From: a virus
Taxonomy: Duplodnaviria > Heunggongvirae > Uroviricota > Caudoviricetes
IMG/VR virus record: IMGVR_UViG_3300045988_019467
Reading direction: 5' to 3' (one strand)
DNA: 43,946 nucleotides
Part shown: positions 2,679-39,033 of the stretch, piece after piece
Layout: each line of letters opens with the position of its first letter
Position numbering within the stretch: the stretch's first letter is position 1
Position numbers and translations under genes: made by a program
The notes under the pieces: model-generated
Seen by the model: only the letters and a program-made list of their open reading frames with translations
Told to the model about the DNA's origin: nothing
Databases searched by the model: none

Positions 2679-2999
2679 TTATAGCTTAAGTTCTTCCGGC
2701 ACATCCGGCACGGCGTTATATTCCCACCATTCAGAACCATCGTATTCTCCGCGAGAAGACCATGTACCATCTTCGTACCAAATTACCCCGAAGAAGTTTT
2801 GACCGCCATAACCGTTGTGATATTCAAAATCAAGTGCGACCATTAGGCTTTCCCATTCTCCGCGGGAGTAATTCTCCCGCAGGATCCATTTACTCCCCTC
2901 AACGAAACCGTAATCCGCGTCATAGTCTGCAAACCAGGCGCATTTAACTACATCTTTACCATCCAGATGGGCGAGCAACTCTTCTTTAGCATTAATCAT
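2679..2999 (-). CDS. hypothetical small acidic, aromatic-rich protein (moron)
   Basis: 106-aa minus-strand ORF inside the plus-strand head module; strong RBS AAGAGGAAG upstream of ATG 2999; about 22 D/E versus about 8 K/R with many W/Y/F. Confidence 0.55.
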   Translation of the reverse strand: MINAKEELLAHLDGKDVVKCAWFADYDADYGFVEGSKWILRENYSRGEWESLMVALDFEYHNGYGGQNFFGVIWYEDGTWSSRGEYDGSEWWEYNAVPDVPEELKL

Positions 3000-3024: not shown

Positions 3025-3056
3025 TGAATAGTACCCTATTATATTGGTGTCTGCAA
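3025..3056 (-). promoter_or_regulatory. class-1 promoter-like element, copy 1 (on minus strand: TTGCAG-N7-TATAAT-AGGGTACTATTCA)
   Basis: Perfect TATAAT on the minus strand about 40 nt upstream of ATG 2999; conserved about 30-bp motif repeated at 5180, 15061, 37806 and 39002, each oriented toward the adjacent operon. Confidence 0.5.
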
Positions 3057-4146: not shown

Positions 4147-4605
4147 ATGGGCTTTTTCAAAGTAACTGATGTGCCGTCGCGCCGTGTCGTCCAGTACGCT
4201 CGCGTGTCTGGCTCCGGGGAGAGCGTGGTGTTTATTGAAGATGAAAGTGTGCTCGGTACACCCGTAGACGATATGCCGTTTGCGGATAAAACCGGTATTG
4301 CGCTGCCAGCGGCGGGCATGCTTTACGAGATTCCGTATCTGGCCGATGCTGGTGATGTGTATTTCTCTATGCAACCGAAAGACACTGAATTGGTGGACGG
4401 CAGCGCAACTATCACTGTCGAAGTTAAGGCAGGCAAAGCGCCGTATGTTCTGACCTGGTACAAAGATGGTAAGGAAGTAGTAAACGCCCCGGAAGAGGCT
4501 TTGTCTCTGACGGTTAACGCGGTGGGTGAATACTTCGTTAAAGTTACTGATGCCGATGGTGTAGAGGCCGTCAGTAAAGCGGCGAAGGTCACCAAACCAG
4601 AATGA
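4147..4605 (+). CDS. Ig-like domain protein (possible capsid decoration or accessory structural protein)
   Basis: C-terminal region has an Ig-like beta-sandwich sequence pattern (TITVEVKAGKAPYVLTWYKDGKEV...GEYFVKVTDADG); a similar pattern recurs in 8306..8647. Confidence 0.5.
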   Translation: MGFFKVTDVPSRRVVQYARVSGSGESVVFIEDESVLGTPVDDMPFADKTGIALPAAGMLYEIPYLADAGDVYFSMQPKDTELVDGSATITVEVKAGKAPYVLTWYKDGKEVVNAPEEALSLTVNAVGEYFVKVTDADGVEAVSKAAKVTKPE

Positions 4606-4608
4606 TAT

Positions 4609-4629
4609 AAGGCCCCTTAACGGGGCCTT
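4609..4629. terminator. bidirectional intrinsic terminator hairpin (AAGGCCCC-TTAAC-GGGGCCTT)
   Basis: GC stem followed by TTAGTTTTATTT; between convergent genes 4147..4605 (+) and 4634..5155 (-); same stem sequence as 2655, 12429 and 24233. Confidence 0.6.
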
Positions 4630-4633
4630 AGTT

Positions 4634-5155
4634 TTATTTAAATCGCGCAGGCATTAACACCATAAAGGCCGTGTTTGAAAATGATATTTTGCATCCTCTG
4701 GTTTGGTCCTGGAAATCGAAACGAGAAATTTCATTTTTGTACGCCTTAGAAATCTTGTACGCGTCTGCCAAATAACGCAGAGTGAACCCTATACTATCGA
4801 CAACACCCGGTGTGATGTGCGCCACGCGTTTCCAGTCAGGAAAGTTTCCTTCTACAACATCTACCGGAAGTGTACATATAAGCGCGCGACTATCGTCATA
4901 GAAAGAAACACTGCCGTTGTCGTGGTCTACCTCTGCGTAGTTAAATTTAGAAGGCTCTCTCCCTTTGATATCAATGAGAACCCCTTTCTCAACGTTTGTC
5001 TTCACATTGTCGCAGAACAATCTATGCCCATTCGTAGACACTATCAACCCCTCAGGTTCTATGTAAAAAGCGTTCAAATAGTAGCGCACATCGTTTTTAG
5101 CCCTGCAGATTTTCGCCCCTACATACGCAGGGAAAGTAATTACCGTAGTAACCAT
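4634..5155 (-). CDS. hypothetical protein (moron, unknown function)
   Basis: 173-aa minus-strand ORF with RBS AGGAGATG before ATG 5155; own promoter-like element and terminator; no motif recognised. Confidence 0.55.
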   Translation of the reverse strand: MVTTVITFPAYVGAKICRAKNDVRYYLNAFYIEPEGLIVSTNGHRLFCDNVKTNVEKGVLIDIKGREPSKFNYAEVDHDNGSVSFYDDSRALICTLPVDVVEGNFPDWKRVAHITPGVVDSIGFTLRYLADAYKISKAYKNEISRFDFQDQTRGCKISFSNTAFMVLMPARFK

Positions 5156-5179
5156 TTCTCATCTCCTGTTTAAGTTAAC

Positions 5180-5211
5180 TGAATAGTACCCTATTATATT
5201 GGAGTATGCAA
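5180..5211 (-). promoter_or_regulatory. class-1 promoter-like element, copy 2 (on minus strand: TTGCAT-N7-TATAAT-AGGGTACTATTCA)
   Basis: Same motif as 3025..3056; TATAAT on the minus strand about 40 nt upstream of ATG 5155. Confidence 0.5.
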
Positions 5212-5263
5212 ACTATTTGTTTACGCATTCCAGTTATTACACTCAATTGTAAATGTTGGAATA

Positions 5264-5306
5264 AACTATTCGAATAGTTGACTTTTCACTAAAAATATGC
5301 TAAGCT
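5264..5306 (+). promoter_or_regulatory. 16-bp perfect palindrome AACTATTCGAATAGTT overlapping a sigma70-like promoter (TTGACT-17-TAAGCT)
   Basis: Perfect palindrome at 5264..5279 built from the same CTATTC/GAATAG half-sites as the repeated operator; TTGACT at 5278..5283 and TAAGCT at 5301..5306. Confidence 0.35.
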
Positions 5307-5487
5307 CCACCTGAGCTTGTGAAGTATGAACAAGCGACCGCGTCGCGGGCAGGTAACGGAGCTGGACGTAAGTCCTGAGTGTAGTTACGCTGACGCGTCC
5401 GGAAGGGCCATACTCTATTGCTTGTGTAAAAAAGTAACTGATTTACTGAGATTACGCCGTTTCTGTGTTTAAATGATAAGGACTAGC

Positions 5488-5512
5488 GCCCCGCTTTAAG
5501 GCGGGGCTTTAC
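5488..5512 (+). terminator. intrinsic terminator or attenuator hairpin just upstream of the spanin genes
   Basis: GCCCCGC-TTTAAG-GCGGGGC stem-loop followed by TTTACTT; lies 20 nt before the i-spanin RBS. Confidence 0.4.
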
Positions 5513-5531
5513 TTATCGAGAAAGGAGAAAC

Positions 5532-5918
5532 ATGAATCTTAAAGCAACTGTCGTAGCGGGAGCATGTTTCATCATCCTGGCTTACGCACACGGCATCTAC
5601 CAGTACCACAGCGGCTGGAACGAAGGCCGGGCGAATCTCGTTTCGCAGCAACAGCAGAAAGCACAGGCTGAGTTAGCGAAGAAAACACAACGGCAGCAGC
5701 AAGATGAATCGAAGGCCGCAGCCGCCGACAACGAAGGCAAGACGAAATCAGAGGTGATTACCCGTGAAGTCGTTAAGTACATTAAAACGCCTGGCCGCAG
5801 CGTGTGCACTTTCGACGATGCTCGCGTCCTGCTCAAGTCCCGCGCCGTCGCAAACGCCAATTCCATCCCCGGATACGACAATGATGCAGCCTCCGTGCAA
5901 ACTGGCGCCGCCAAGTAG
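5532..5918 (+). CDS. i-spanin (Rz-like inner-membrane spanin)
   Basis: N-terminal transmembrane helix (VVAGACFIILAYAHGIY) followed by a Q/A/K-rich coiled-coil-like region; an o-spanin-like lipoprotein ORF overlaps its 3' end in another frame; RBS AAAGGAGA. Confidence 0.65.
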   Translation: MNLKATVVAGACFIILAYAHGIYQYHSGWNEGRANLVSQQQQKAQAELAKKTQRQQQDESKAAAADNEGKTKSEVITREVVKYIKTPGRSVCTFDDARVLLKSRAVANANSIPGYDNDAASVQTGAAK

Positions 5919-15060: not shown

Positions 15061-15092
15061 TGAATAGTACCCTATTATATTGGGGTGTGCAA
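15061..15092 (-). promoter_or_regulatory. class-1 promoter-like element, copy 3 (on minus strand: TTGCAC-N7-TATAAT-AGGGTACTATTCA)
   Basis: Same conserved motif; TATAAT on the minus strand about 40 nt upstream of ATG 15033. Confidence 0.5.
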
Positions 15093-24906: not shown

Positions 24907-26327
24907 TTCTTACCTCTGCGCTTCATATAATTAAGTAGTTCGTCCTGTACAGACCTTTTCTCGTCTGTACGCGCGGCGACAACTTCATCAAGAGTATCTC
25001 TGGCTATTATTTGATAAATGAATACAGACCGTTTGTATCCAGATTGCATCTGCCTTACCGGGCCTATGCGCTCGATAACCTGCAGATAATGCTCCAGGTT
25101 CCACCCCTGACTCATAAATGCCATGTGGTGTCCGCCGTGTTGTAGCGACAGCCCGTGACCCGCGGAGGCCGGGTGTATCAGGAGCATAGGTATTTCACCG
25201 CGGTTCCATGCTTCCATCTGCTTATTACCCTTAGCACCTTTGGCAAACGCCTGCGCCTGAGGGAATCGCTTAAGGATGCGCTCCAGTTCGTGCTTGAACT
25301 GATAGGCCACCAGCAACGGCGCGCCCTGTAACTCCTCTACAATGGACTCGAGCGCATCAAGTTTCGTGTCGTGCACTTTTTCCCAATCTTTGGTTGCTTC
25401 GCCGTCGGGGCCCGACACATATACGGCACCGGATGCAATCTGCAAGCACTTCGACGTCTTCGCCGCGGCGTTAGCCGCTTCAACTTCCCCACTTTCCAGT
25501 TCTGCGAATAGCTTCTCCTCCATATCTATGTACGCCTGACGCGCTTTCTTCGGCAGGTCAATTTCCACCGGCACGATAATAGGTGCTTCACAACCAAACC
25601 ACTCGGCAGCGTCAATCGTGAGACTAATGTCCTTCATCTTCTGGTGAATCTCGTTATCTGCTCCCGGGCGGGCATGGTACTCGCGTGCCATCGCTGATTT
25701 GCCTTTCTGTACCGAGTTAAACCATCTGTCGGTGAATGCCGTGTACGAGGAACCCAGGCGCTCACCTGCGTCGATAAACCAGTTCTGACCCCACAAGTCC
25801 TTGAGGCCGTTTGGCGAGGGCGTACCGGTCAGGTTGATAAAACGCTTAACCTTTCCGAATGCCACTTTACTAAGTGCCTTTGCCCTCTTGCTACCACCTG
25901 AACGGCTGCGGAACGATTTCAGCTTCGTGCTCTCATCAGCAACGATAACCGTAAAAGGCCAGTCGTCTTTGCCGTAGTAGTCAATCAGCCACTCTATTAC
26001 CTCGTAGTTGATACAAATCACATTGGCGTCTGACTCCAGCGCCGCGATGCGGCGCTTCTCTGAACCAGTTGCATCGGCGACACGCAGACAAGGGAATTTC
26101 CATTTCTCTTGTTCCGCGGGCCACGTACCCGACGCAACGCGTAAAGGGGCAAGAATTAACACTCGGTCGTCGTCATTAAGTTGCCCATTACGGAACAGGC
26201 GGTTTAAAGTCCACAAGACGCTGCCCGTCTTCCCGGCGCCCATGCTTGCCCATATGTTGCAGCGATGGTGCCGCAACATGAACGAAGTCATTAGCTTCTG
26301 GTACTCGCGCCTTTGAAACTTACTCAT
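24903..26327 (-). CDS. SNF2 / DEAD-DEAH-type superfamily 2 helicase
   Basis: Walker A SMGAGKTGS, DExx-like box VIVADEST, and C-terminal helicase-domain-like region. Confidence 0.65.
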   Translation of the reverse strand: MSKFQRREYQKLMTSFMLRHHRCNIWASMGAGKTGSVLWTLNRLFRNGQLNDDDRVLILAPLRVASGTWPAEQEKWKFPCLRVADATGSEKRRIAALESDANVICINYEVIEWLIDYYGKDDWPFTVIVADESTKLKSFRSRSGGSKRAKALSKVAFGKVKRFINLTGTPSPNGLKDLWGQNWFIDAGERLGSSYTAFTDRWFNSVQKGKSAMAREYHARPGADNEIHQKMKDISLTIDAAEWFGCEAPIIVPVEIDLPKKARQAYIDMEEKLFAELESGEVEAANAAAKTSKCLQIASGAVYVSGPDGEATKDWEKVHDTKLDALESIVEELQGAPLLVAYQFKHELERILKRFPQAQAFAKGAKGNKQMEAWNRGEIPMLLIHPASAGHGLSLQHGGHHMAFMSQGWNLEHYLQVIERIGPVRQMQSGYKRSVFIYQIIARDTLDEVVAARTDEKRSVQDELLNYMKRRGKK

Positions 26328-27117
26328 TTACGGCCCCCATGAACGCCTTTATAAATTCAGCGGCTACTTGCGGGACGATAGCATTGCCGTAACCGCGCAG
26401 GCGCCCCACTCTGGCGGGAACCCCATTATCTGACGAGCCATAATCGGGTGGAATGATTCGAGTTTTACCATCTGCTCCTTTGTCGGTTTTCCATTCGGAC
26501 CAAAAGTGTGTAGCCACATCTGGCGATATAGCGTGTCGTTTCTCATCCTCCCATCGTTTCTCATGAATGACCGACTTAAATCCCCTGAATCCCTGTGTGA
26601 CCGTGTTGTAGCGGTAGCCCAGGGTTGCCCCAAAGAAGAGTCTTTCTCTTTTGTGCGGTGCGCCGACGCTACAAGCTGGGAGTACGGCAAACCCGACGGC
26701 GTAGTCTTCTCCTTCCAGGTGAGTTTGTAAATCGCACATCCACGATTTTGCAATTGCTGGCGCAACCTGCTCCCCAAAGAGGACTGGAGGGTGGCACTCG
26801 CTGATGAGGTCGAGGAAGACTGGCGCGAGGTGTCTCGGGTCGAACTGTCCGAGTTGTTTTCCTGCCGCGCTAAACGGTTGGCAAGGCGGGCTTCCCGTCC
26901 AGAGAGGCGTATCTTCCGAAACTCCCGCAAGTCTGAGCGCGAGAGGCCAGCCGCCGATACCAGCGAAAAAATGACACTGGGTGAATCCGTCAAGGTCTTC
27001 TGGTCTAATTTCGGTAATGCTTCTTTCATCTACAACTCCAAAGGGTATTTGACCCTGTTTTATTAATTCACGCAGCCACGCGGCGGCGCCTTTATCCCAT
27101 TCATTGTAATAGTTCAT
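26320..27117 (-). CDS. DNA (cytosine-5) methyltransferase, orphan
   Basis: C5-MTase motif I FFAGIGG, motif IV GSPPCQPFSAAGK (catalytic PCQ), ENV-like GEQV, C-terminal GYGNAIVPQV; no adjacent restriction endonuclease. Confidence 0.7.
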   Translation of the reverse strand: MNYYNEWDKGAAAWLRELIKQGQIPFGVVDERSITEIRPEDLDGFTQCHFFAGIGGWPLALRLAGVSEDTPLWTGSPPCQPFSAAGKQLGQFDPRHLAPVFLDLISECHPPVLFGEQVAPAIAKSWMCDLQTHLEGEDYAVGFAVLPACSVGAPHKRERLFFGATLGYRYNTVTQGFRGFKSVIHEKRWEDEKRHAISPDVATHFWSEWKTDKGADGKTRIIPPDYGSSDNGVPARVGRLRGYGNAIVPQVAAEFIKAFMGAVNE

Positions 27118-31242: not shown

Positions 31243-31397
31243 CGCTTAATTTTAGAAACTTTCTCACACCAAAGAAAATAGCGCTCGATTGACTCACTAT
31301 CGCGAAGTTTACGGTCTACCCACGCGATAGACGAAGTGAACGCGCCTATTACTATAAAAGGAGAAACAAGCGCCCAATACTTAATTTTACGAATCAT
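31239..31397 (-). CDS. small membrane protein (one TM helix)
   Basis: 52-aa ORF with hydrophobic core (YWALVSPFIVIGAFTSSIAWV); ATG overlaps the stop of the upstream gene (ATGA). Confidence 0.35.
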   Translation of the reverse strand: MIRKIKYWALVSPFIVIGAFTSSIAWVDRKLRDSESIERYFLWCEKVSKIKR

Positions 31398-32644
31398 TCT
31401 AAATCCTCCTCTGTTACCTGATTCCACTCAGGCCGTTTGTCGTCTGCCGCTGCAACACATGGTGCCCCCGGCTTGCGTGTGATAAATGGCTCAAGCGCAG
31501 CCATCTCGTCCGCCGACAGAACTTTGGCGGCTTCTGTTGGTGACATCAAAACCTCTTTTTTGAGGATATCGCCGTGTGAAACTTCAATCGCGTCCGCGTC
31601 TTTCCACGCACGATTACCAGGGCGACCCTCAACCAGCTTGTACCCCGGCACTTTCTTGCCGGAATGCAACGCGGCAGACATCGCTTTCTCAACCTTGTCG
31701 ATGTGCTGGCGCAACAACGGCAGCTTCTCATACTCAGTTACGAGTTGCTCCGGTGTCAGTTCCGGCGCAAAGTCGTCTTCAAGTTCTTCCGCCAGCACCG
31801 CGTTAACGGTTTTTGTACGCGCAGCACACTGTTCAGAGAACCGGCACCACTGACAACCACCGACAGACGGCCTGAAGTCAGACGCTTTCAGATTCTTCTT
31901 GCCACGGAAATACGCATCAAGAGCCAACAGTGCACGTTTCTGCGCAAACTTAGCGAACAGTTCCAGACCTTCAACCGAGATGTCCCACTCCGACGCACCG
32001 CCAGCATACGGCTGGAAGATGACCAGACGAACCACGGTGATGTTATAACGCCTCTTTAGTCGGCGATAAACACCGAGAGCGTAAAGCATAAGCTGCTTGT
32101 TTTCTTTCGCTTCGACACGATGCCGCCCGGTTTTCAGGTCGCCGACGGTAAGCATGTGCTCGTCAGTGTTAGCCAATTCCTGAACGGCAACAAGGTCAGC
32201 GGTTCCGAACGTCTCAACGCCTTCGTAACCGGGATGCAATACCTCAGTAAGATTGACACGCATTTCCAGCTTGGCGTAAGTCGCTACATCGATAATCGCT
32301 TTGCAGTAGTCGGTATACTTGCGTACCTGCTCAATCATATCAGCCGTAATCAGTACCGCGCCTTTCATCGGACTGATTAGCGCCTTAATCTGGCCTTTAC
32401 CCTCATCCAGCACATAAGCACCGACTTCACGCTCTAACGGCAACGCAGTACCTTTGATGTACTGATTTAAATGGACCTCGGCTATGGTGTGACACGCGGT
32501 CCCTGTAACGGCAGCTTTACCAGACGTGTTAGGAATATCTTTTTCACAGGCCAGTGATGCACTGCACGTCAGCCACTTCTTAGCACCTGACGGCGATAAT
32601 AAGGCGTGCACATCGTTATTGCCACCGCGTTCTTTTAGAATCAT
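31394..32644 (-). CDS. PD-(D/E)xK exonuclease, Cas4-like (DUF2800-type) with C-terminal Cys cluster
   Basis: N-terminal HALLSPSGAKKWLTCSASL signature; C-terminal Cys cluster (GGCQWCRFSEQC) as in Cas4/AddB-type Fe-S nucleases. Confidence 0.6.
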   Translation of the reverse strand: MILKERGGNNDVHALLSPSGAKKWLTCSASLACEKDIPNTSGKAAVTGTACHTIAEVHLNQYIKGTALPLEREVGAYVLDEGKGQIKALISPMKGAVLITADMIEQVRKYTDYCKAIIDVATYAKLEMRVNLTEVLHPGYEGVETFGTADLVAVQELANTDEHMLTVGDLKTGRHRVEAKENKQLMLYALGVYRRLKRRYNITVVRLVIFQPYAGGASEWDISVEGLELFAKFAQKRALLALDAYFRGKKNLKASDFRPSVGGCQWCRFSEQCAARTKTVNAVLAEELEDDFAPELTPEQLVTEYEKLPLLRQHIDKVEKAMSAALHSGKKVPGYKLVEGRPGNRAWKDADAIEVSHGDILKKEVLMSPTEAAKVLSADEMAALEPFITRKPGAPCVAAADDKRPEWNQVTEEDLE

Positions 32645-34187: not shown

Positions 34188-34228
34188 GGTATGTGCTAAC
34201 TATAATAGCGAACTATTCATGGTGTCAA
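34188..34228 (-). promoter_or_regulatory. class-2 promoter, copy 6 (minus strand: TTGACACC-N13-TATTATAGT)
   Basis: Minus-strand TTGACA (plus 34223..34228) and TATAGT (plus 34199..34204); divergent from the Cro-like gene. Confidence 0.5.
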
Positions 34229-34525: not shown

Positions 34526-36808
34526 CTACTCCAAATCTTCCTCTGTCACCACCAGCATTTCATTCGGTTCGTATATTGTCTTCGGCCTTAATCTATCCCC
34601 TATTCTTTCAGGTATACGATATGTTCTCGGTACTACTTCGCCGTTTGCATCGCAGCCAAGCATTAGTTCACCATCTTTCAACATTTTATCAAGATGGGTG
34701 TTAGTCACAGAGAAGTCACCAGAACGGGCCACTATCTGCTGCTGAGTAAAACCGCGTCCGGTGTCATCAGACTGTTGCAGGTCTTCCAGCGCCGAAAGTA
34801 TTGACTCCTTCCTTCCTTCATCCCTGCCGCGTTTAACCTCTTCCTTTACTTTTTCTTTACCTTTATCAGATAGCCCTTCTTCCCGCTCTTTCTCCTCGTC
34901 AGTTTTGAACGGCTCGAAGCCCCACGGCATCAACACAAGCGCCTTGTGTGGCTCTGGCAGGTCGAGGTTAACGATTGTGCCGTATTCCTCGGTGCTACCC
35001 AGGAACTCAACTGCGCGGTATTCTTTCGGCGGTGGCGCTTCACGGAACTGTACCGACTCCAGAACCATGCCAACCGTCTTCTGTTGAGGCCCGTGCTTAA
35101 ATTTAGAGTGGTATACGTTTATCTGACGGTCTGTAGCGCGTTCGATTGTCAGTTCCACGTCGACACCGGCATACAATGCCCCACTGCCACGGGCTTTCTT
35201 TCCGCCCTTCGGTGTATGGTGGACGACGCCCACCGCGGCTTTAGTTGCGTCACGTACTTCTTTCAGGATGGCGATAACTTTACCCATGCCGATTGCCGTT
35301 GATGAACTGTTCTCGTCGAACTTATCAATCGTCAGTGCCAGCGTCTGGTTGAGGGTGTCGAACGCCACCATGCCGATTGGCTCGCCCTCCGCAGTTTCGC
35401 GCATTAACTTAATCAGGTTTTTCAGTTTTCCGACTTCACCCATGTCGATGACATGTACATAATCTTTACCTTCCTCGCCATATTTAGCCGCGAGTGCGTC
35501 GATACGTGTGCGCGTAGCTGCGCCACCCTCACCGTCGATATAGAAATGGTGGCAACGCTGGGTGTCTGCCCCTGCAAACCGATATCCGGCGGCGCTGAGG
35601 TACATCATCCCCAGCGTATAGAACGACTTGTACGTACCAGACTCACCGACAATATCCCATATGCAATCTGACGGCATATACCCTTCGACGACGAAATCAG
35701 CCTTTACCGGTGCCGGTAACTCATCCTCCTCTGAGTCCTCATCGTCTTCCAGGTCGTCGAGGCTGCATGAAACAGATTCACGCGCACCCCAGCCGATAGC
35801 CTCTGCGACTTCACTGAACGGCAGGCCAGTCGCATCGCACGCATATTTCCACACCTCTTTCGGCGACATGCCTTCGGTTGCCGTAATGTCGGTGTTGTGA
35901 ATCATGGTTACGTTCGGCGCTTCATATCCTTCACGCGGGAAACACAGCAGGAAGTCGTCAGGACGCGGCGTCGGGTCGCTGTAGTTTTCTGCATGCTCTG
36001 GTGTGGCTGGCATCTTAAGGCCGCGCGGCGTCATGATGCCGCCGTACTCGAACGCCAGTGCCTCGAACGCATCAGTAAACGCGGTGCGCAGTTCTTCCGG
36101 TATCTGGTAATCCGATGCGCCGCTAACGTCAACGGCGGGGATGCCTTCCAGCAACTCGTCCGGGTCAATCAGGTCGTTGCGGCGCGACCAGATAACCTGC
36201 GAGCCGACCGGCGGCAGGTACATAGGCTGGGACAGAGTGAACCCGCTGCGGTCAGCACCCATGCCCTTAAAGAAATGCTCCAGCAACCCGTGGCGAACAC
36301 GGATGACGTCACCACCCTCAACCGGGCGGGCCAGTGGCATGACGACGCGAAAGCGCGGTGATTCATCGGTATGGGATGCCGTGGTGTAAATGCACATCGC
36401 CAGGCGGCTGCGCTTAACCAGGCGCACAGCTTCCTGGTACTCTTCCGGTGTTGCACTGTCGAAGTCCAGATACGCCAGCGACGATTTGCTTACAGACGCG
36501 TCACAGCGGTAAAAGAAGCCTTTACGCGCTTGCTTAAAGTCGCCTGTTTCCGGGTCTTTTACGGTGCTGCGTGTCGAGTCGCACGCGGCTGTGATATAGC
36601 CGGGCGCTGTCTTCGGGTTAATTCCATCACGAACAGCATCGAGCGGCTGGATTAACTCTTTCAGGTCGTCCAGTGTTGCCGTGTGTGTGGTTCTGACGTT
36701 TATATCCTTTTTCTCTGCCCGCGCGTTGCGACGGGACCAAGAGTAGGATAAAATTACATCGGACATGTTGTATATTCCTTCAGCAAGTAATTTGGCCTCG
36801 GCGTTCAC
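34526..36808 (-). CDS. DNA primase/helicase (RecA-like ATPase domain)
   Basis: 760-aa protein with Walker A-like GESGTYKS in the C-terminal half; calling the N-terminal half a primase domain is by analogy with P4-type replicases, not a recognised motif. Confidence 0.55.
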   Translation of the reverse strand: MNAEAKLLAEGIYNMSDVILSYSWSRRNARAEKKDINVRTTHTATLDDLKELIQPLDAVRDGINPKTAPGYITAACDSTRSTVKDPETGDFKQARKGFFYRCDASVSKSSLAYLDFDSATPEEYQEAVRLVKRSRLAMCIYTTASHTDESPRFRVVMPLARPVEGGDVIRVRHGLLEHFFKGMGADRSGFTLSQPMYLPPVGSQVIWSRRNDLIDPDELLEGIPAVDVSGASDYQIPEELRTAFTDAFEALAFEYGGIMTPRGLKMPATPEHAENYSDPTPRPDDFLLCFPREGYEAPNVTMIHNTDITATEGMSPKEVWKYACDATGLPFSEVAEAIGWGARESVSCSLDDLEDDEDSEEDELPAPVKADFVVEGYMPSDCIWDIVGESGTYKSFYTLGMMYLSAAGYRFAGADTQRCHHFYIDGEGGAATRTRIDALAAKYGEEGKDYVHVIDMGEVGKLKNLIKLMRETAEGEPIGMVAFDTLNQTLALTIDKFDENSSSTAIGMGKVIAILKEVRDATKAAVGVVHHTPKGGKKARGSGALYAGVDVELTIERATDRQINVYHSKFKHGPQQKTVGMVLESVQFREAPPPKEYRAVEFLGSTEEYGTIVNLDLPEPHKALVLMPWGFEPFKTDEEKEREEGLSDKGKEKVKEEVKRGRDEGRKESILSALEDLQQSDDTGRGFTQQQIVARSGDFSVTNTHLDKMLKDGELMLGCDANGEVVPRTYRIPERIGDRLRPKTIYEPNEMLVVTEEDLE

Positions 36809-36825: not shown

Positions 36826-37059
36826 TTATTCCAGGTCTTCTAAAGTAGCGGTCATTCCGCGAACTTCGGCAACGGCACTATATTTCCCGCCAACATTTTT
36901 CACGACACCGGATTTAACCAGTACACGTAACGACCCTTCAATAATGGCTGAACTATAGTACTTAAAATAACTACGGCGCAAGTCCATAACGCTGCACGAC
37001 CTTTTTTTACGGGTTAATGAAACGACCGCCGTAAATACGCGTGACTGGAACTCTGTCAT
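36826..37059 (-). CDS. hypothetical protein (C-terminal ...TLEDLE)
   Basis: 77-aa ORF; ATG overlaps the stop of the upstream gene (ATGA). Confidence 0.4.
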   Translation of the reverse strand: MTEFQSRVFTAVVSLTRKKRSCSVMDLRRSYFKYYSSAIIEGSLRVLVKSGVVKNVGGKYSAVAEVRGMTATLEDLE

Positions 37060-37805: not shown

Positions 37806-37838
37806 CTTGCGCACCCCAACATAATAGGATACTATTCA
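37806..37838 (+). promoter_or_regulatory. class-1 promoter-like element, copy 4 (TTGCGC-N7-CATAAT-AGGATACTATTCA)
   Basis: Same motif as the minus-strand copies, here on the + strand about 45 nt upstream of ATG 37870. Confidence 0.5.
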
Positions 37839-39001: not shown

Positions 39002-39033
39002 TTGCACACTGGGATAGAATAGGCTACTATTCA
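39002..39033 (+). promoter_or_regulatory. class-1 promoter-like element, copy 5 (TTGCAC-N7-TAGAAT-AGGCTACTATTCA)
   Basis: Same motif; + strand, about 45 nt upstream of ATG 39062 and just after the terminator. Confidence 0.5.

Follow-up and report, generated by a model that had tools for sequence, protein, structure and literature searches.

A truncated beta-sliding-clamp homologue as the sole gene of an accessory cassette in a virulent Kagunavirus

Background

A 173-residue protein encoded in the window (the whole stretch of 43,946 nucleotides of phage DNA that was analysed) is, with near certainty, a truncated homologue of the beta sliding clamp (DnaN) carried in a single-gene accessory cassette. 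The cleft of the beta clamp is a hub that organises every bacterial polymerase, the clamp loader, mismatch repair and Hda, and is a target of antibiotics. The genome that carries the gene is that of a virulent Kagunavirus and not of a prophage; the closest relatives of the window are Kagunavirus records, and an integrase or other lysogeny-associated genes were undetected in the phage fBC-Eco01 (PMC9825357). The protein is hereafter referred to as the mini-clamp, and the features of its cassette are listed in Table 1.

Table 1. Coordinates and basis of assignment of the features in and around the mini-clamp cassette
Feature	Position	Strand	Description and basis
CDS, truncated beta-sliding-clamp homologue (mini-clamp)	4634..5155	-	ORF list, phmmer, family HMM, AF2, Foldseek
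Shine-Dalgarno AGGAG	5163..5167	-	7 nt upstream of the ATG (5155-5153); direct sequence reading; RBS annotation in phage Schulenburg
Class-1 promoter-like element TTGCATACTCCAATATAATAGGGTACTATTCA, 32 nt	5180..5211	-	-35-like TTGCAT (5206-5211), 17-nt spacer, -10-like TACTAT (5183-5188); repetition and position
Palindrome AATAG-N4-CTATT	5182..5195		Overlaps the -10-like hexamer; candidate operator
Second perfect palindrome AACTATTCGAATAGTT	5264..5279		Divergent intergenic region; conserved in Bas70
GC-rich hairpin	4608..4630		Common to the converging Ig-like gene (+) and the mini-clamp gene (-); terminator scan, folding

Results and discussion

Identity of the encoded protein

The reading frame agrees exactly, in its limits, ATG start and length, with the one given in a first-pass annotation made from the sequence alone, and its location between the Ig-like gene and the spanins is also borne out by relatives, in which a Hoc-like/Ig capsid decoration protein and an i-/o-spanin are annotated. 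The frame is kept among homologues at 60-97% identity, and a profile search returned 1,463 cluster representatives (50% identity) of 165-215 aa with the same architecture; the gene is therefore considered to be real.

The first-pass annotation had recognised no family for the protein, a view that the profile and structure searches overturn in favour of the beta sliding clamp family. Taken singly, the sequence lies far under the curated cut-offs that define DnaN: PF02767 is its sole Pfam match, at 15.9 bits against a cut-off of 27, the models of the N- and C-domains (PF00712 and PF02768) are unmatched, and the TIGR00663 score is 17.5 against a cut-off of 137.65. A phmmer search of the PDB aligned residues 16-112 with positions 144-248, and residues 117-171 with positions 312-365, of the E. 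coli and Pseudomonas DnaN proteins, and a profile built from 145 family members, 77 of which match PF02767, detected E. coli DnaN at 100 bits (database E-value 8e-28). The AF2 model of the protein (pLDDT 97, pTM 0.91) was compared with the PDB using Foldseek, and the best 50 matches were all beta clamps (DnaN), with a probability of 1.0 and a TMq of ~0.69. Many phage proteins of 163-266 aa with the same fold are present in BFVD. The signatures DVRYYLN, TDGHRL, G-FPD-RRV and MP-R are common to the mini-clamp and DnaN. Family members occur in phages of enterobacteria, Pseudomonas, Burkholderia and Gram-positive hosts; word-indexed homologue searches returned close relatives only, and the wider family was obtained from the exhaustive profile search.

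Relatives in GenBank are already labelled 'DNA polymerase III sliding clamp' or 'beta clamp domain-containing protein'. The PHROG 3007 profile, named 'RusA-like Holliday junction resolvase', matches residues 13-172 with an E-value of 7e-37; identity as a resolvase was rejected, as there is no RusA match in Pfam, the sole Pfam match is to the clamp central domain and the predicted fold is that of a clamp. The family is thus mis-annotated both by the PHROG 3007 label, which is given to it in records annotated through PHROGs, and by those records in which it is named as a complete 'DNA polymerase III sliding clamp'. In the literature surveyed for phage clamps that are truncated or resemble DnaN, there was no functional study and no characterised family member. 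The protein had earlier been put forward as a candidate host-interaction factor, a proposal that was to lapse if a known structural or metabolic protein of no special interest proved to be a confident homologue; confident homology was indeed found, and a truncated, non-canonical clamp is not a protein of that description. A host-interaction role is plausible.

Domain architecture and the loss of the ring interface

The mini-clamp shares a homologous fold, signatures and cleft with E. coli DnaN (366 aa; PDB 2POL, 1MMI), in which three domains comprise six beta-alpha-beta-beta-beta motifs, whereas the mini-clamp has three such motifs in 173 aa. Residues 1-112 correspond to domain II (~129-248) and residues 113-173 to the C-terminal half of domain III (IIIb, ~312-366), and domain I and the first half of domain III (IIIa) are absent. 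The third motif is closer to half IIIb (32.5 bits) than to half IIIa (4.0 bits); the whole motif, its helix and its last-strand parts all fit IIIb, the short middle part alone being ambiguous. A IIIa/IIIb hybrid resulting from an in-register deletion (HMM alignment to DnaN 250-297) was considered for this motif and rejected. The mini-clamp and the enterobacterial members of 170-180 aa also lack the second inner helix of domain II.

The dimer interface of DnaN brings I78 and F106 of domain I together with I272 and L273 of domain III (PMC11139829). Both sides of this ring-closing interface are missing from the mini-clamp, which makes a canonical head-to-tail ring impossible for it. It is nearly certain that the three retained motifs are spatially adjacent in the clamp and together hold the whole cleft for the clamp-binding motif (CBM).

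The binding cleft and the search for its ligands

Eighteen CBM-cleft residues are listed for the clamp (PMC11139829), of which 15 are identical to those of E. coli at the sequence level (R24, L27, T41, G43, H44, R45, L46, P106, R110, V111, Y128, V166, M168, P169 and R171 in the mini-clamp), and two positions of subsite II are changed (N320 to T125 and M364 to A170). Of the 15 positions at which conservation within the family is at least 80%, 10 are cleft residues (hypergeometric p = 2e-8). Judged by sequence, the hydrophobic CBM-binding cleft, with subsites I and II, is present in the mini-clamp. Such conservation is no proof of peptide binding, as the cleft is conserved in every clamp by descent and is partly structural; in E. 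coli beta the same cleft also binds ssDNA (PMC11139829).

A regular expression for the CBM applied to ~80 ORFs of the phage gave seven matches, as against ~6 expected by chance in a back-of-envelope estimate; these lie in structural proteins, and no match was obtained in the phage polymerase (PolA) or helicases. No convincing CBM was seen in the neighbouring ParB, Nmad5 and methyltransferase proteins of other phages.

The mini-clamp is a more basic protein than DnaN, with a pI of 8.3 (family median 7.8) compared with 5.2, and Lys or Arg is conserved at the position equivalent to Q149 (74%) and on helix 3 (82% and 66%). Clamp-loader domains were found in none of the ten proteins scanned, mainly from the replication module, and none is annotated in the relatives. 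Clamp homologues that are loader-less and of high pI have been linked by Kazlauskas and Venclovas to direct DNA binding without a ring (PMC3201878), and the mini-clamp may likewise bind DNA directly through its conserved basic, DNA-facing residues.

Regulatory elements of the cassette

The description of the gene as an autonomous minus-strand unit with its own promoter and terminator, and as similar in architecture to the cassette at 2679..2999, holds good: a repeated promoter-like element and a hairpin are recognisable in the sequence, the T-tract on the gene's own strand being weak, and one of the five copies of the element belongs to that cassette. The five copies in the window are invariant at 21 specified bases, with 0 expected from 100 shuffles, a comparison that is partly circular in that the pattern was derived from the same five copies. 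The element is common to the mini-clamp gene and four other units of the window, a gene start lies ~25-35 nt downstream of every copy, all copies are correctly oriented, and the element is 95% conserved in Bas70 despite a different cargo. The upper limit given earlier for the unit, 5211, falls on the base with which the -35-like hexamer begins. A generic sigma70 scan did not call the element, since its -35 hexamer fits the consensus at only three of six positions; its designation as a putative promoter is based on repetition and position and not on consensus strength. A perfect TATAAT inside the element was considered as an alternative -10 and rejected, there being no conserved -35 at a workable distance.

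The palindrome AATAG-N4-CTATT has 32 strand-matches with up to two mismatches against 9.6 expected, a number reached in no shuffle, and its sites are located in promoter-like regions; the one in the mini-clamp unit is possibly an operator. It is uncertain that the second palindrome is part of this unit.

The hairpin downstream of the gene has 9 bp and folding energies of -17.8 kcal/mol on the minus strand and -20.1 kcal/mol on the plus strand (z-scores -3.2 and -5.3, respectively). In phage Schulenburg the annotation gives it as a terminator for both strands, and the terminator scan called it on the plus strand only; its T-tract, too, is good on that strand only. The claim that the terminator is bidirectional is thus supported for the plus strand and only partly so for the minus-strand transcript.

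Mobility and distribution of the cassette

The mini-clamp unit has a G+C content of 43.5%, compared with 50.7% for the window. Homology to Bas70 breaks exactly at the ends of the CDS, at 4635 and 5153, and an unrelated gene of 67 aa occupies the place in that phage. In fBC-Eco01 the mini-clamp gene is found in slot 1, where its chimeric junctions fall within the promoter core and hairpin common to both slots, and the slot 1 stem is near-identical to the hairpin at the mini-clamp slot. Recombination within the promoter and terminator sequences that the two slots have in common appears to carry the gene from one slot to the other. At least three alleles occur at the mini-clamp slot, and the gene is present in about 23 of ~181 Kagunavirus-like records; it is dispensable for the genus. 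The term 'moron', used earlier for this unit, is apt with regard to its own signals, its replacement and its deviant G+C, and applies only loosely because the phage is virulent and the gene is not one expressed from a prophage in the classical sense. None of 5,426 complete E. coli genomes carries the mini-clamp gene or shows DNA similarity to it, and a plasmid search gave only weak partial matches, on large plasmids. In other genera the gene adjoins genes for DNA modification, possibly a sign of another role.

The PeSL cassettes of T4-type phages consist of small accessory genes between repeated promoter/stem-loop recombination sites and undergo modular shuffling (PMC2839356, PMC4122927). The mini-clamp cassette resembles them in having its breakpoints inside a shared promoter core and hairpin, and differs from them in the phage group and the motif, in the orientation of its units opposite to the late operon and in being confined to only two slots in the head module.

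Relation to known clamps and clamp-like proteins

Short phage homologues of polIII-beta that are shorter than DnaN and devoid of domain I were noted in 2011 by Kazlauskas and Venclovas (PMC3201878). The mini-clamp is similar to them in being phage-encoded, in the absence of domain I and of a clamp loader and in its raised pI; they are described there as made up of domains II and III, and of domain III the mini-clamp has half IIIb only. It is therefore an addition to a known but unstudied kind of protein. The E. coli product beta*, described by the Livneh laboratory in 1996 as a UV-induced internal-start product of dnaN with domains II and III, reportedly acts as a clamp; it is N-terminally truncated and starts near the boundary of domains I and II as does the mini-clamp, but retains all of domain III. 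The herpesvirus proteins UL42 and UL44 have the clamp fold, are loader-free, contact DNA through a face rich in basic charge and provide a docking site for a peptide of the polymerase (PMC3201878). Their likeness to the mini-clamp, for which DNA binding is predicted from charge only, is a functional analogy only, and they differ in belonging to the PCNA lineage and in having two full domains.

Some phage proteins are known to exploit the host clamp, such as gp168 of phage Twort (PMC11139829) and MuC of phage Mu, which has a CBM (PMC12867686), and these identify the beta-clamp interaction network as a phage target. They bind the host clamp, whereas the mini-clamp imitates the clamp's docking site.

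Probable function

The mini-clamp is best read, with a probability of about one half, as an early, dispensable, loader-independent and non-ring clamp-cleft module that docks CBM proteins and possibly DNA. Its gene would be transcribed from the sigma70-like promoter against the flow of the late operon, probably early in infection since the same class of promoter precedes the small right-end genes of the phage, a timing that follows from promoter class only. [quoted passage not shown] What such docking would achieve is a matter for tentative suggestion. The mini-clamp might act as a decoy that pulls clients off the host clamp; equally tentatively, it might be a tether comparable to UL42 that holds one client on phage DNA. 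A third suggestion, no firmer than these two, is that it belongs to a new class of factors for host takeover, mimicking the docking cleft of the beta clamp in soluble form and competing with the host clamp for CBM proteins. If so, host replication and repair would be shut down or redirected with the clamp itself left untouched, through targets such as Pol III alpha and delta, Hda, MutS/L and the translesion polymerases. A bolder variant is that subunits of 1.5 domains each assemble into a D2 tetrameric ring of a type not seen before.

Several other explanations were weighed against this cleft module. It is unlikely that the mini-clamp is an accessory subunit of DNA-modification or DNA-marking machinery that places enzymes of the ParB-like, Nmad5 or methyltransferase type on phage DNA as it replicates, the partner in Kagunavirus being the phage C5-methyltransferase encoded elsewhere (26320-27117 in the window). 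Nmad5 (PF18757, E-value 7e-56) adjoins the homologue in Dhillonvirus 'rolling', ParB-like HTH proteins are its neighbours in Skatevirus, a Klebsiella phage and Pseudomonas TC7, and DNA methyltransferases in C130_2 and TC7, an association based on ~10 sampled neighbourhoods; ParB homologues are known to activate phage DNA-modifying dioxygenases (PMC13229309), which also counts in its favour. However, the gene is solitary in the window and in SaI_NFG_5577, the partners vary by genus and are not mutually homologous, and none has a clear CBM.

A genuine processivity clamp, of which several copies form a closed ring that tethers phage PolA or host Pol III, is improbable. The clamp fold with an intact polymerase-docking cleft, the annotation of relatives as sliding clamps and the location of the Hungariovirus C130_2 homologue in the replication module are in keeping with it, and a D2 tetramer, for example, with half-domain-to-half-domain and edge-strand pairings would, by topology, supply the 12 motifs of a beta ring from four chains of three. 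Yet both canonical interface regions are missing, an odd number of motifs should preclude head-to-tail closure, and the enterobacterial members of 170-180 aa are without the second inner helix of domain II. The lack of a detectable clamp loader in the phage and of a CBM in its PolA, and a pI typical of non-ring factors, also speak against it, as does the absence of the gene from most phages of the genus, which nevertheless have the same replication genes.

Still less probable is an anti-defence or anti-toxin decoy, the cleft of which soaks up a host effector that attacks or rides the host clamp, such as a CBM-bearing toxin or nuclease, and not the replication enzymes. A conserved cleft encoded by an accessory cassette of early type that is shuffled horizontally and occupies a variable slot would suit such a role, and in Dhillonvirus escape from the Tmn defence system maps to the neighbouring nmad5 (PMC11846954), which is counted in its support. 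Against it, the argument comes from context only, PADLOC defence models gave no match, no CBM-using defence system is known from the literature consulted, and the published anti-Tmn protein of Dhillonvirus, for which identity with the mini-clamp was considered and rejected, is the product of a different gene, the helical, rod-shaped ORF35. Finally, decay of a captured dnaN gene into a functionless fragment, as might be suggested by the older annotation of the Bcep781 homologue ('DNA Pol III b subunit fragment') and by the dispensability of the gene in the genus, is effectively refuted by family-wide conservation, the same architecture of 165-215 aa recurring in the cluster representatives across many phage groups with specific residues strongly conserved, and is also opposed by the confident fold prediction, the gene's own Shine-Dalgarno sequence, promoter and terminator, and the lack of DNA similarity to E. 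coli genomes.

Conclusion

The mini-clamp belongs to a family of ~1,460 clusters that retains the cleft of the sliding clamp and discards the ring. The cassette in which it is found is a clean example, beyond the T4-like phages, of gene shuffling by means of repeated promoter and terminator sequences. If binding of the CBM holds true, the family would provide natural, minimal and monomer-sized cleft modules, useful as probes or decoys, and a handle on the manipulation of host replication and repair by virulent siphophages.

Identification and family assignment

The 173-residue product of the minus-strand gene between the capsid decoration and spanin genes (hereafter referred to as the mini-clamp) is a truncated homologue of the beta sliding clamp (DnaN). 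The window covers almost the entire genome of a virulent E. coli siphophage of the genus Kagunavirus (Guernseyvirinae). Across 4300-5600 it is 92-94% identical to fEg-Eco19, fPoEco01, Ivi, Schulenburg and Snoke. The ORF was recovered from the ORF list and the sequence on the strand and with the length assigned in the first-pass annotation; it starts with ATG and has a Shine-Dalgarno AGGAG 7 nt ahead of the start codon. Phage Bas70 keeps both the small divergent ORF (48 aa in the ORF list, 36 aa as annotated in the relatives) and AACTATTCGAATAGTT, a perfect palindrome; the two lie in the intergenic stretch between the divergent genes, ahead of the spanins.

Features of the mini-clamp locus and related elements in the window
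Feature	Coordinates	Strand	Source
Slot 1 cassette, 106 aa	2679-2999	-	
32-nt element, slot 1 cassette	3025-3056	-	
Hoc-like/Ig capsid decoration gene, convergent with mini-clamp gene	4147-4605	+	Relatives' annotations
Hairpin	4608-4630		
Mini-clamp ORF, ATG start, 173 aa	4634..5155	-	ORF list, sequence
32-nt element, mini-clamp cassette	5180-5211	-	
Perfect palindrome	5264-5279		
Small ORF, divergent from mini-clamp gene	5326-5472	+	ORF list
i-/o-spanin genes, divergent from mini-clamp gene	start 5532		Relatives' annotations
32-nt element	15061-15092	-	
Further palindrome-bearing promoter-like elements	~27639, 31219, 34204	-	
HTH_3 regulator, 71 aa	34293-34508	+	
Replication-module proteins with shared acidic tail	31394-32644, 34526-36808, 36826-37059	-	
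32-nt element	37807-37838	+	
32-nt element	39002-39033	+	

The earlier statement that the protein has no recognisable motif or family is overturned by Pfam, phmmer, profile and Foldseek searches, all of which point to the beta clamp. Pfam gave a single sub-threshold match, to the central domain of DNA polymerase III beta, and phmmer against PDB sequences aligned residues 16-112 with E. coli DnaN 144-248 and residues 117-171 with 312-365. An exhaustive profile search with a threshold of E <= 1e-3 retrieved 1,463 cluster representatives; among the best 150, almost every one is 165-215 aa long. A profile built from 145 of these representatives matched E. coli DnaN with 100 bits (database-level E 8e-28), all 46 of its PDB matches are full-length clamps, and PF02767 was matched individually by 77 of the 145 members. 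An AlphaFold2 model built from the family alignment (pLDDT 97, pTM 0.91) was submitted to Foldseek, as the first-pass annotation had suggested, and the best 50 PDB matches were all beta clamps (TMq ~0.69). BFVD contains many phage proteins of 163-266 aa with this fold, from phages of Serratia, Pantoea, Burkholderia, Rhodococcus, Bacillus and others.

In PHROGs the mini-clamp matched phrog_3007 (E 7e-37) and, more weakly, a processivity-factor family. The name RusA-like Holliday junction resolvase, under which phrog_3007 is listed, misdescribes this clamp-fold family, with no RusA similarity found; it has spread via automated annotation into GenBank records. The mini-clamp is not new in kind: records of relatives already name the gene a sliding clamp, and in 2011 Kazlauskas & Venclovas noted five 'shorter' phage polIII-beta homologues (PMC3201878). 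No solved structure of this type was present among the PDB matches by Foldseek or profile, and literature searches found no functional paper on it.

Domain anatomy and the clamp-binding cleft

Residues 1-112 correspond to DnaN domain II and residues 113-173 to one beta-alpha-beta-beta-beta motif, which matches half IIIb of domain III (32.5 bits) rather than half IIIa (4.0 bits); domain I and half IIIa are absent. In the clamp, I78/F106 from domain I and I272/L273 from domain III form the interface that closes the ring (PMC11139829); all are located in the absent parts, and both sides of that interface are therefore missing. Domain II has also lost its second inner helix in the short enterobacterial members, including the mini-clamp, whose AlphaFold2 model shows coil at residues 64-72; relatives of ~220 aa keep this helix. 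Judging from published cleft and interface residue positions, the spatial order of motifs round the ring would be IIb-IIa-IIIb-IIIa, so that the mini-clamp would retain a contiguous quarter-ring arc.

The pocket that docks clamp-binding motifs (CBMs) comprises subsite I (R152, L155, T172, G174, H175, R176, L177, P242, R246, V247, V360, M362) and subsite II (H175, N320, Y323, V344, M362, P363, M364, R365) (PMC11139829). Every one of these residues falls in IIa, the end of IIb or IIIb, exactly the part retained, and 15 of the 18 are identical between the mini-clamp and E. coli DnaN, the substitutions being N320->T125, V344->T152 and M364->A170. Fifteen family positions are conserved at >=80% (D22, R24, Y26, L27, G29, T41, G43, H44, P68, G103, P106, Y128, M168, P169 and R171), and ten of them are pocket residues (hypergeometric p = 2e-8). 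As the family's most conserved feature, the docking cleft is, at the level of sequence, what selection preserves; that the mini-clamp is a dead fragment is thus highly improbable.

Ring or non-ring architecture

No clamp loader was found among ten phage proteins scanned, mainly of the replication module and including the family-A polymerase, AAA_25 helicase/primase, SNF2 helicase, PD-(D/E)XK nuclease, Enc34-type SSB, C5-methyltransferase and HTH regulator; the annotation of phage Ivi likewise has none. The pI is 8.3 for the mini-clamp and 7.8 for the family median, against 5.2 for DnaN; K/R occupies the equivalent of the DNA-contacting Q149 in 74% of the family, and basic residues on the third helix are conserved in 82% and 66%. 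For clamp homologues with a high pI and no loader, direct DNA binding without a ring has been argued, as for herpesvirus UL42/UL44 (PMC3201878). A true oligomeric clamp is accordingly doubtful: a D2 tetramer is geometrically conceivable, but the failure to find a loader, the high pI and the conserved basic residues argue against a canonical ring, and the odd number of motifs per chain makes head-to-tail closure impossible.

Gene neighbourhoods in other phages

The protein has homologues of 28-41% identity in 224 phage records, their genes often likewise forming a reversed unit within the head module. Among the ~10 neighbourhoods surveyed, the mini-clamp gene accompanies an Nmad5 gene in Dhillonvirus rolling (L003, 5147-5911) and a ParB-like gene with small ORFs in Skatevirus Skate (L004, 4897-5706) and a Klebsiella phage; it lies between two DNA methyltransferase genes, with primase and dUTPase close by, in Hungariovirus C130_2 (L010), between a ParB-like gene and a C5-methyltransferase in Pseudomonas TC7 (L014), and as a lone reversed gene in Burkholderia Bcep781. 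These neighbours may indicate a functional link to DNA modification, and a role as partner of DNA-modification enzymes, though improbable, is the likeliest of the alternatives; the Nmad5, ParB-like and methyltransferase proteins share no homology with one another and carry no convincing CBM.

Escape from Tmn defence maps to the Nmad5 locus, and cloned Nmad5 is toxic (PMC11846954). An anti-defence decoy is a still less likely identity for the mini-clamp than an oligomeric clamp. The mini-clamp was ruled out as the anti-Tmn protein, which is encoded by another gene.

Regulatory elements and mobility of the cassette

The upper boundary of the region first annotated, 5211, is where a 32-nt element, TTGCATACTCCAATATAATAGGGTACTATTCA, begins; five copies of it are present in the window with 21 specified bases invariant (0 expected by chance, the pattern being derived from these copies). 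All five are oriented towards a Shine-Dalgarno and start codon ~25-35 nt downstream. The element is read as a putative weak sigma70-type promoter (TTGCAT, 17 nt, TACTAT) with the palindrome AATAG-N4-CTATT; a generic promoter scan did not call it, and the label follows from its repetition, position and orientation at gene starts. The hairpin is stable (-17.8 and -20.1 kcal/mol), with a proper T-tract on the plus strand only. Thus, of the proposed promoter and bidirectional terminator, the promoter-like element and hairpin stand, and the minus-strand side of the terminator lacks a proper T-tract. The likeness to the slot 1 cassette holds, a copy of the element preceding that gene too; its product had no Pfam match, and its promoter/terminator design is like that of the mini-clamp cassette (slot 2).

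Two promoter-like families built on the palindrome occur in the window, class 1 (TTGCnnAC...AATAGGnTACTATTCA) and class 2 (TTGACAcc..AATAGnnnnCTATTATAGT), the latter preceding replication operons. The motif was called a phage-RNA-polymerase promoter in the fBC-Eco01 paper (PMC9825357), yet no phage RNA polymerase is annotated, and the elements look more like sigma70 promoters sharing an operator. The gene for the HTH_3 (Cro/cI-type) regulator lies between two divergent promoters, at 34204 and 34249, that both bear the palindrome. Its product is a candidate for binding this operator and could in that way regulate the mini-clamp cassette.

The gene is accessory and mobile, with its own signals. 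Region 4300-5600 is fully covered in only 16 of 181 matching records, and tblastn found the protein at >=80% identity in 23. Homology to Bas70 reaches window position 4635 and restarts at 5153, with flanks 88% and 95% identical; stop and terminator, and ATG, Shine-Dalgarno and promoter, are kept, and only the CDS is swapped for an unrelated 67-aa gene. This cargo was found in 20 records; given the few records with either cargo, most relatives carry further alleles. In fBC-Eco01 a 95% identical mini-clamp occupies slot 1, between the portal and MuF-like genes; its upstream region is distally slot-1-like and proximally slot-2-like, switching within the shared promoter core, and its 3' junction falls within the shared AAGGCCCC...GGGGCCTT hairpin. 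The G+C content of the CDS is 43.5%, compared with 50.7% for the window. In its shuffling behaviour the cassette resembles the PeSL promoter/stem-loop cassettes of T4-type phages (PMC2839356, PMC4122927). The term 'moron' is apt for an autonomous, swappable single-gene unit, but only loosely so in a virulent phage, neither integrase nor other lysogeny-associated gene having been detected in the relative fBC-Eco01 (PMC9825357).

None of 5,426 complete E. coli genomes carries the gene. Very large plasmids (Salmonella, 270-290 kb; E. coli, 438 kb; four predicted conjugative) carry weak partial homologues, 30-33% identical over 57% of the protein and annotated as hypothetical proteins.

Proposed function and significance

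We infer that the mini-clamp is an early product and a non-ring cleft module that docks CBM-bearing proteins, most obviously host clamp clients. Its basic inner face may bind DNA, and the outcome would be either sequestration of clients as a decoy or, equally likely, tethering of one client to phage DNA in a UL42-like manner. Against the cleft-docking reading, CBM-like strings are about as common in the phage proteome as expected by chance, with none in the polymerase and no phage-encoded ligand found among them; the cleft residues are partly structural; the same cleft in E. coli beta also binds ssDNA (PMC11139829); and at least two subsite-II residues are changed.

Three replication-module proteins share an acidic C-terminus: ...TEEDLE in both the PD-(D/E)XK/DUF2800 nuclease and the AAA_25 helicase/primase, and ...TLEDLE in a protein of 77 aa. 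The stop codon overlaps the downstream start for only one of the three genes, so translational coupling fails to explain the tails, which may be a docking motif.

What appears under-appreciated is the exact anatomy of the mini-clamp (domain II and half of domain III), a minimal unit holding the entire cleft, together with the size of the family and its two competing mis-annotations. Though no surprise in kind, the mini-clamp gives a testable lead on how phages may manipulate the clamp interaction hub.
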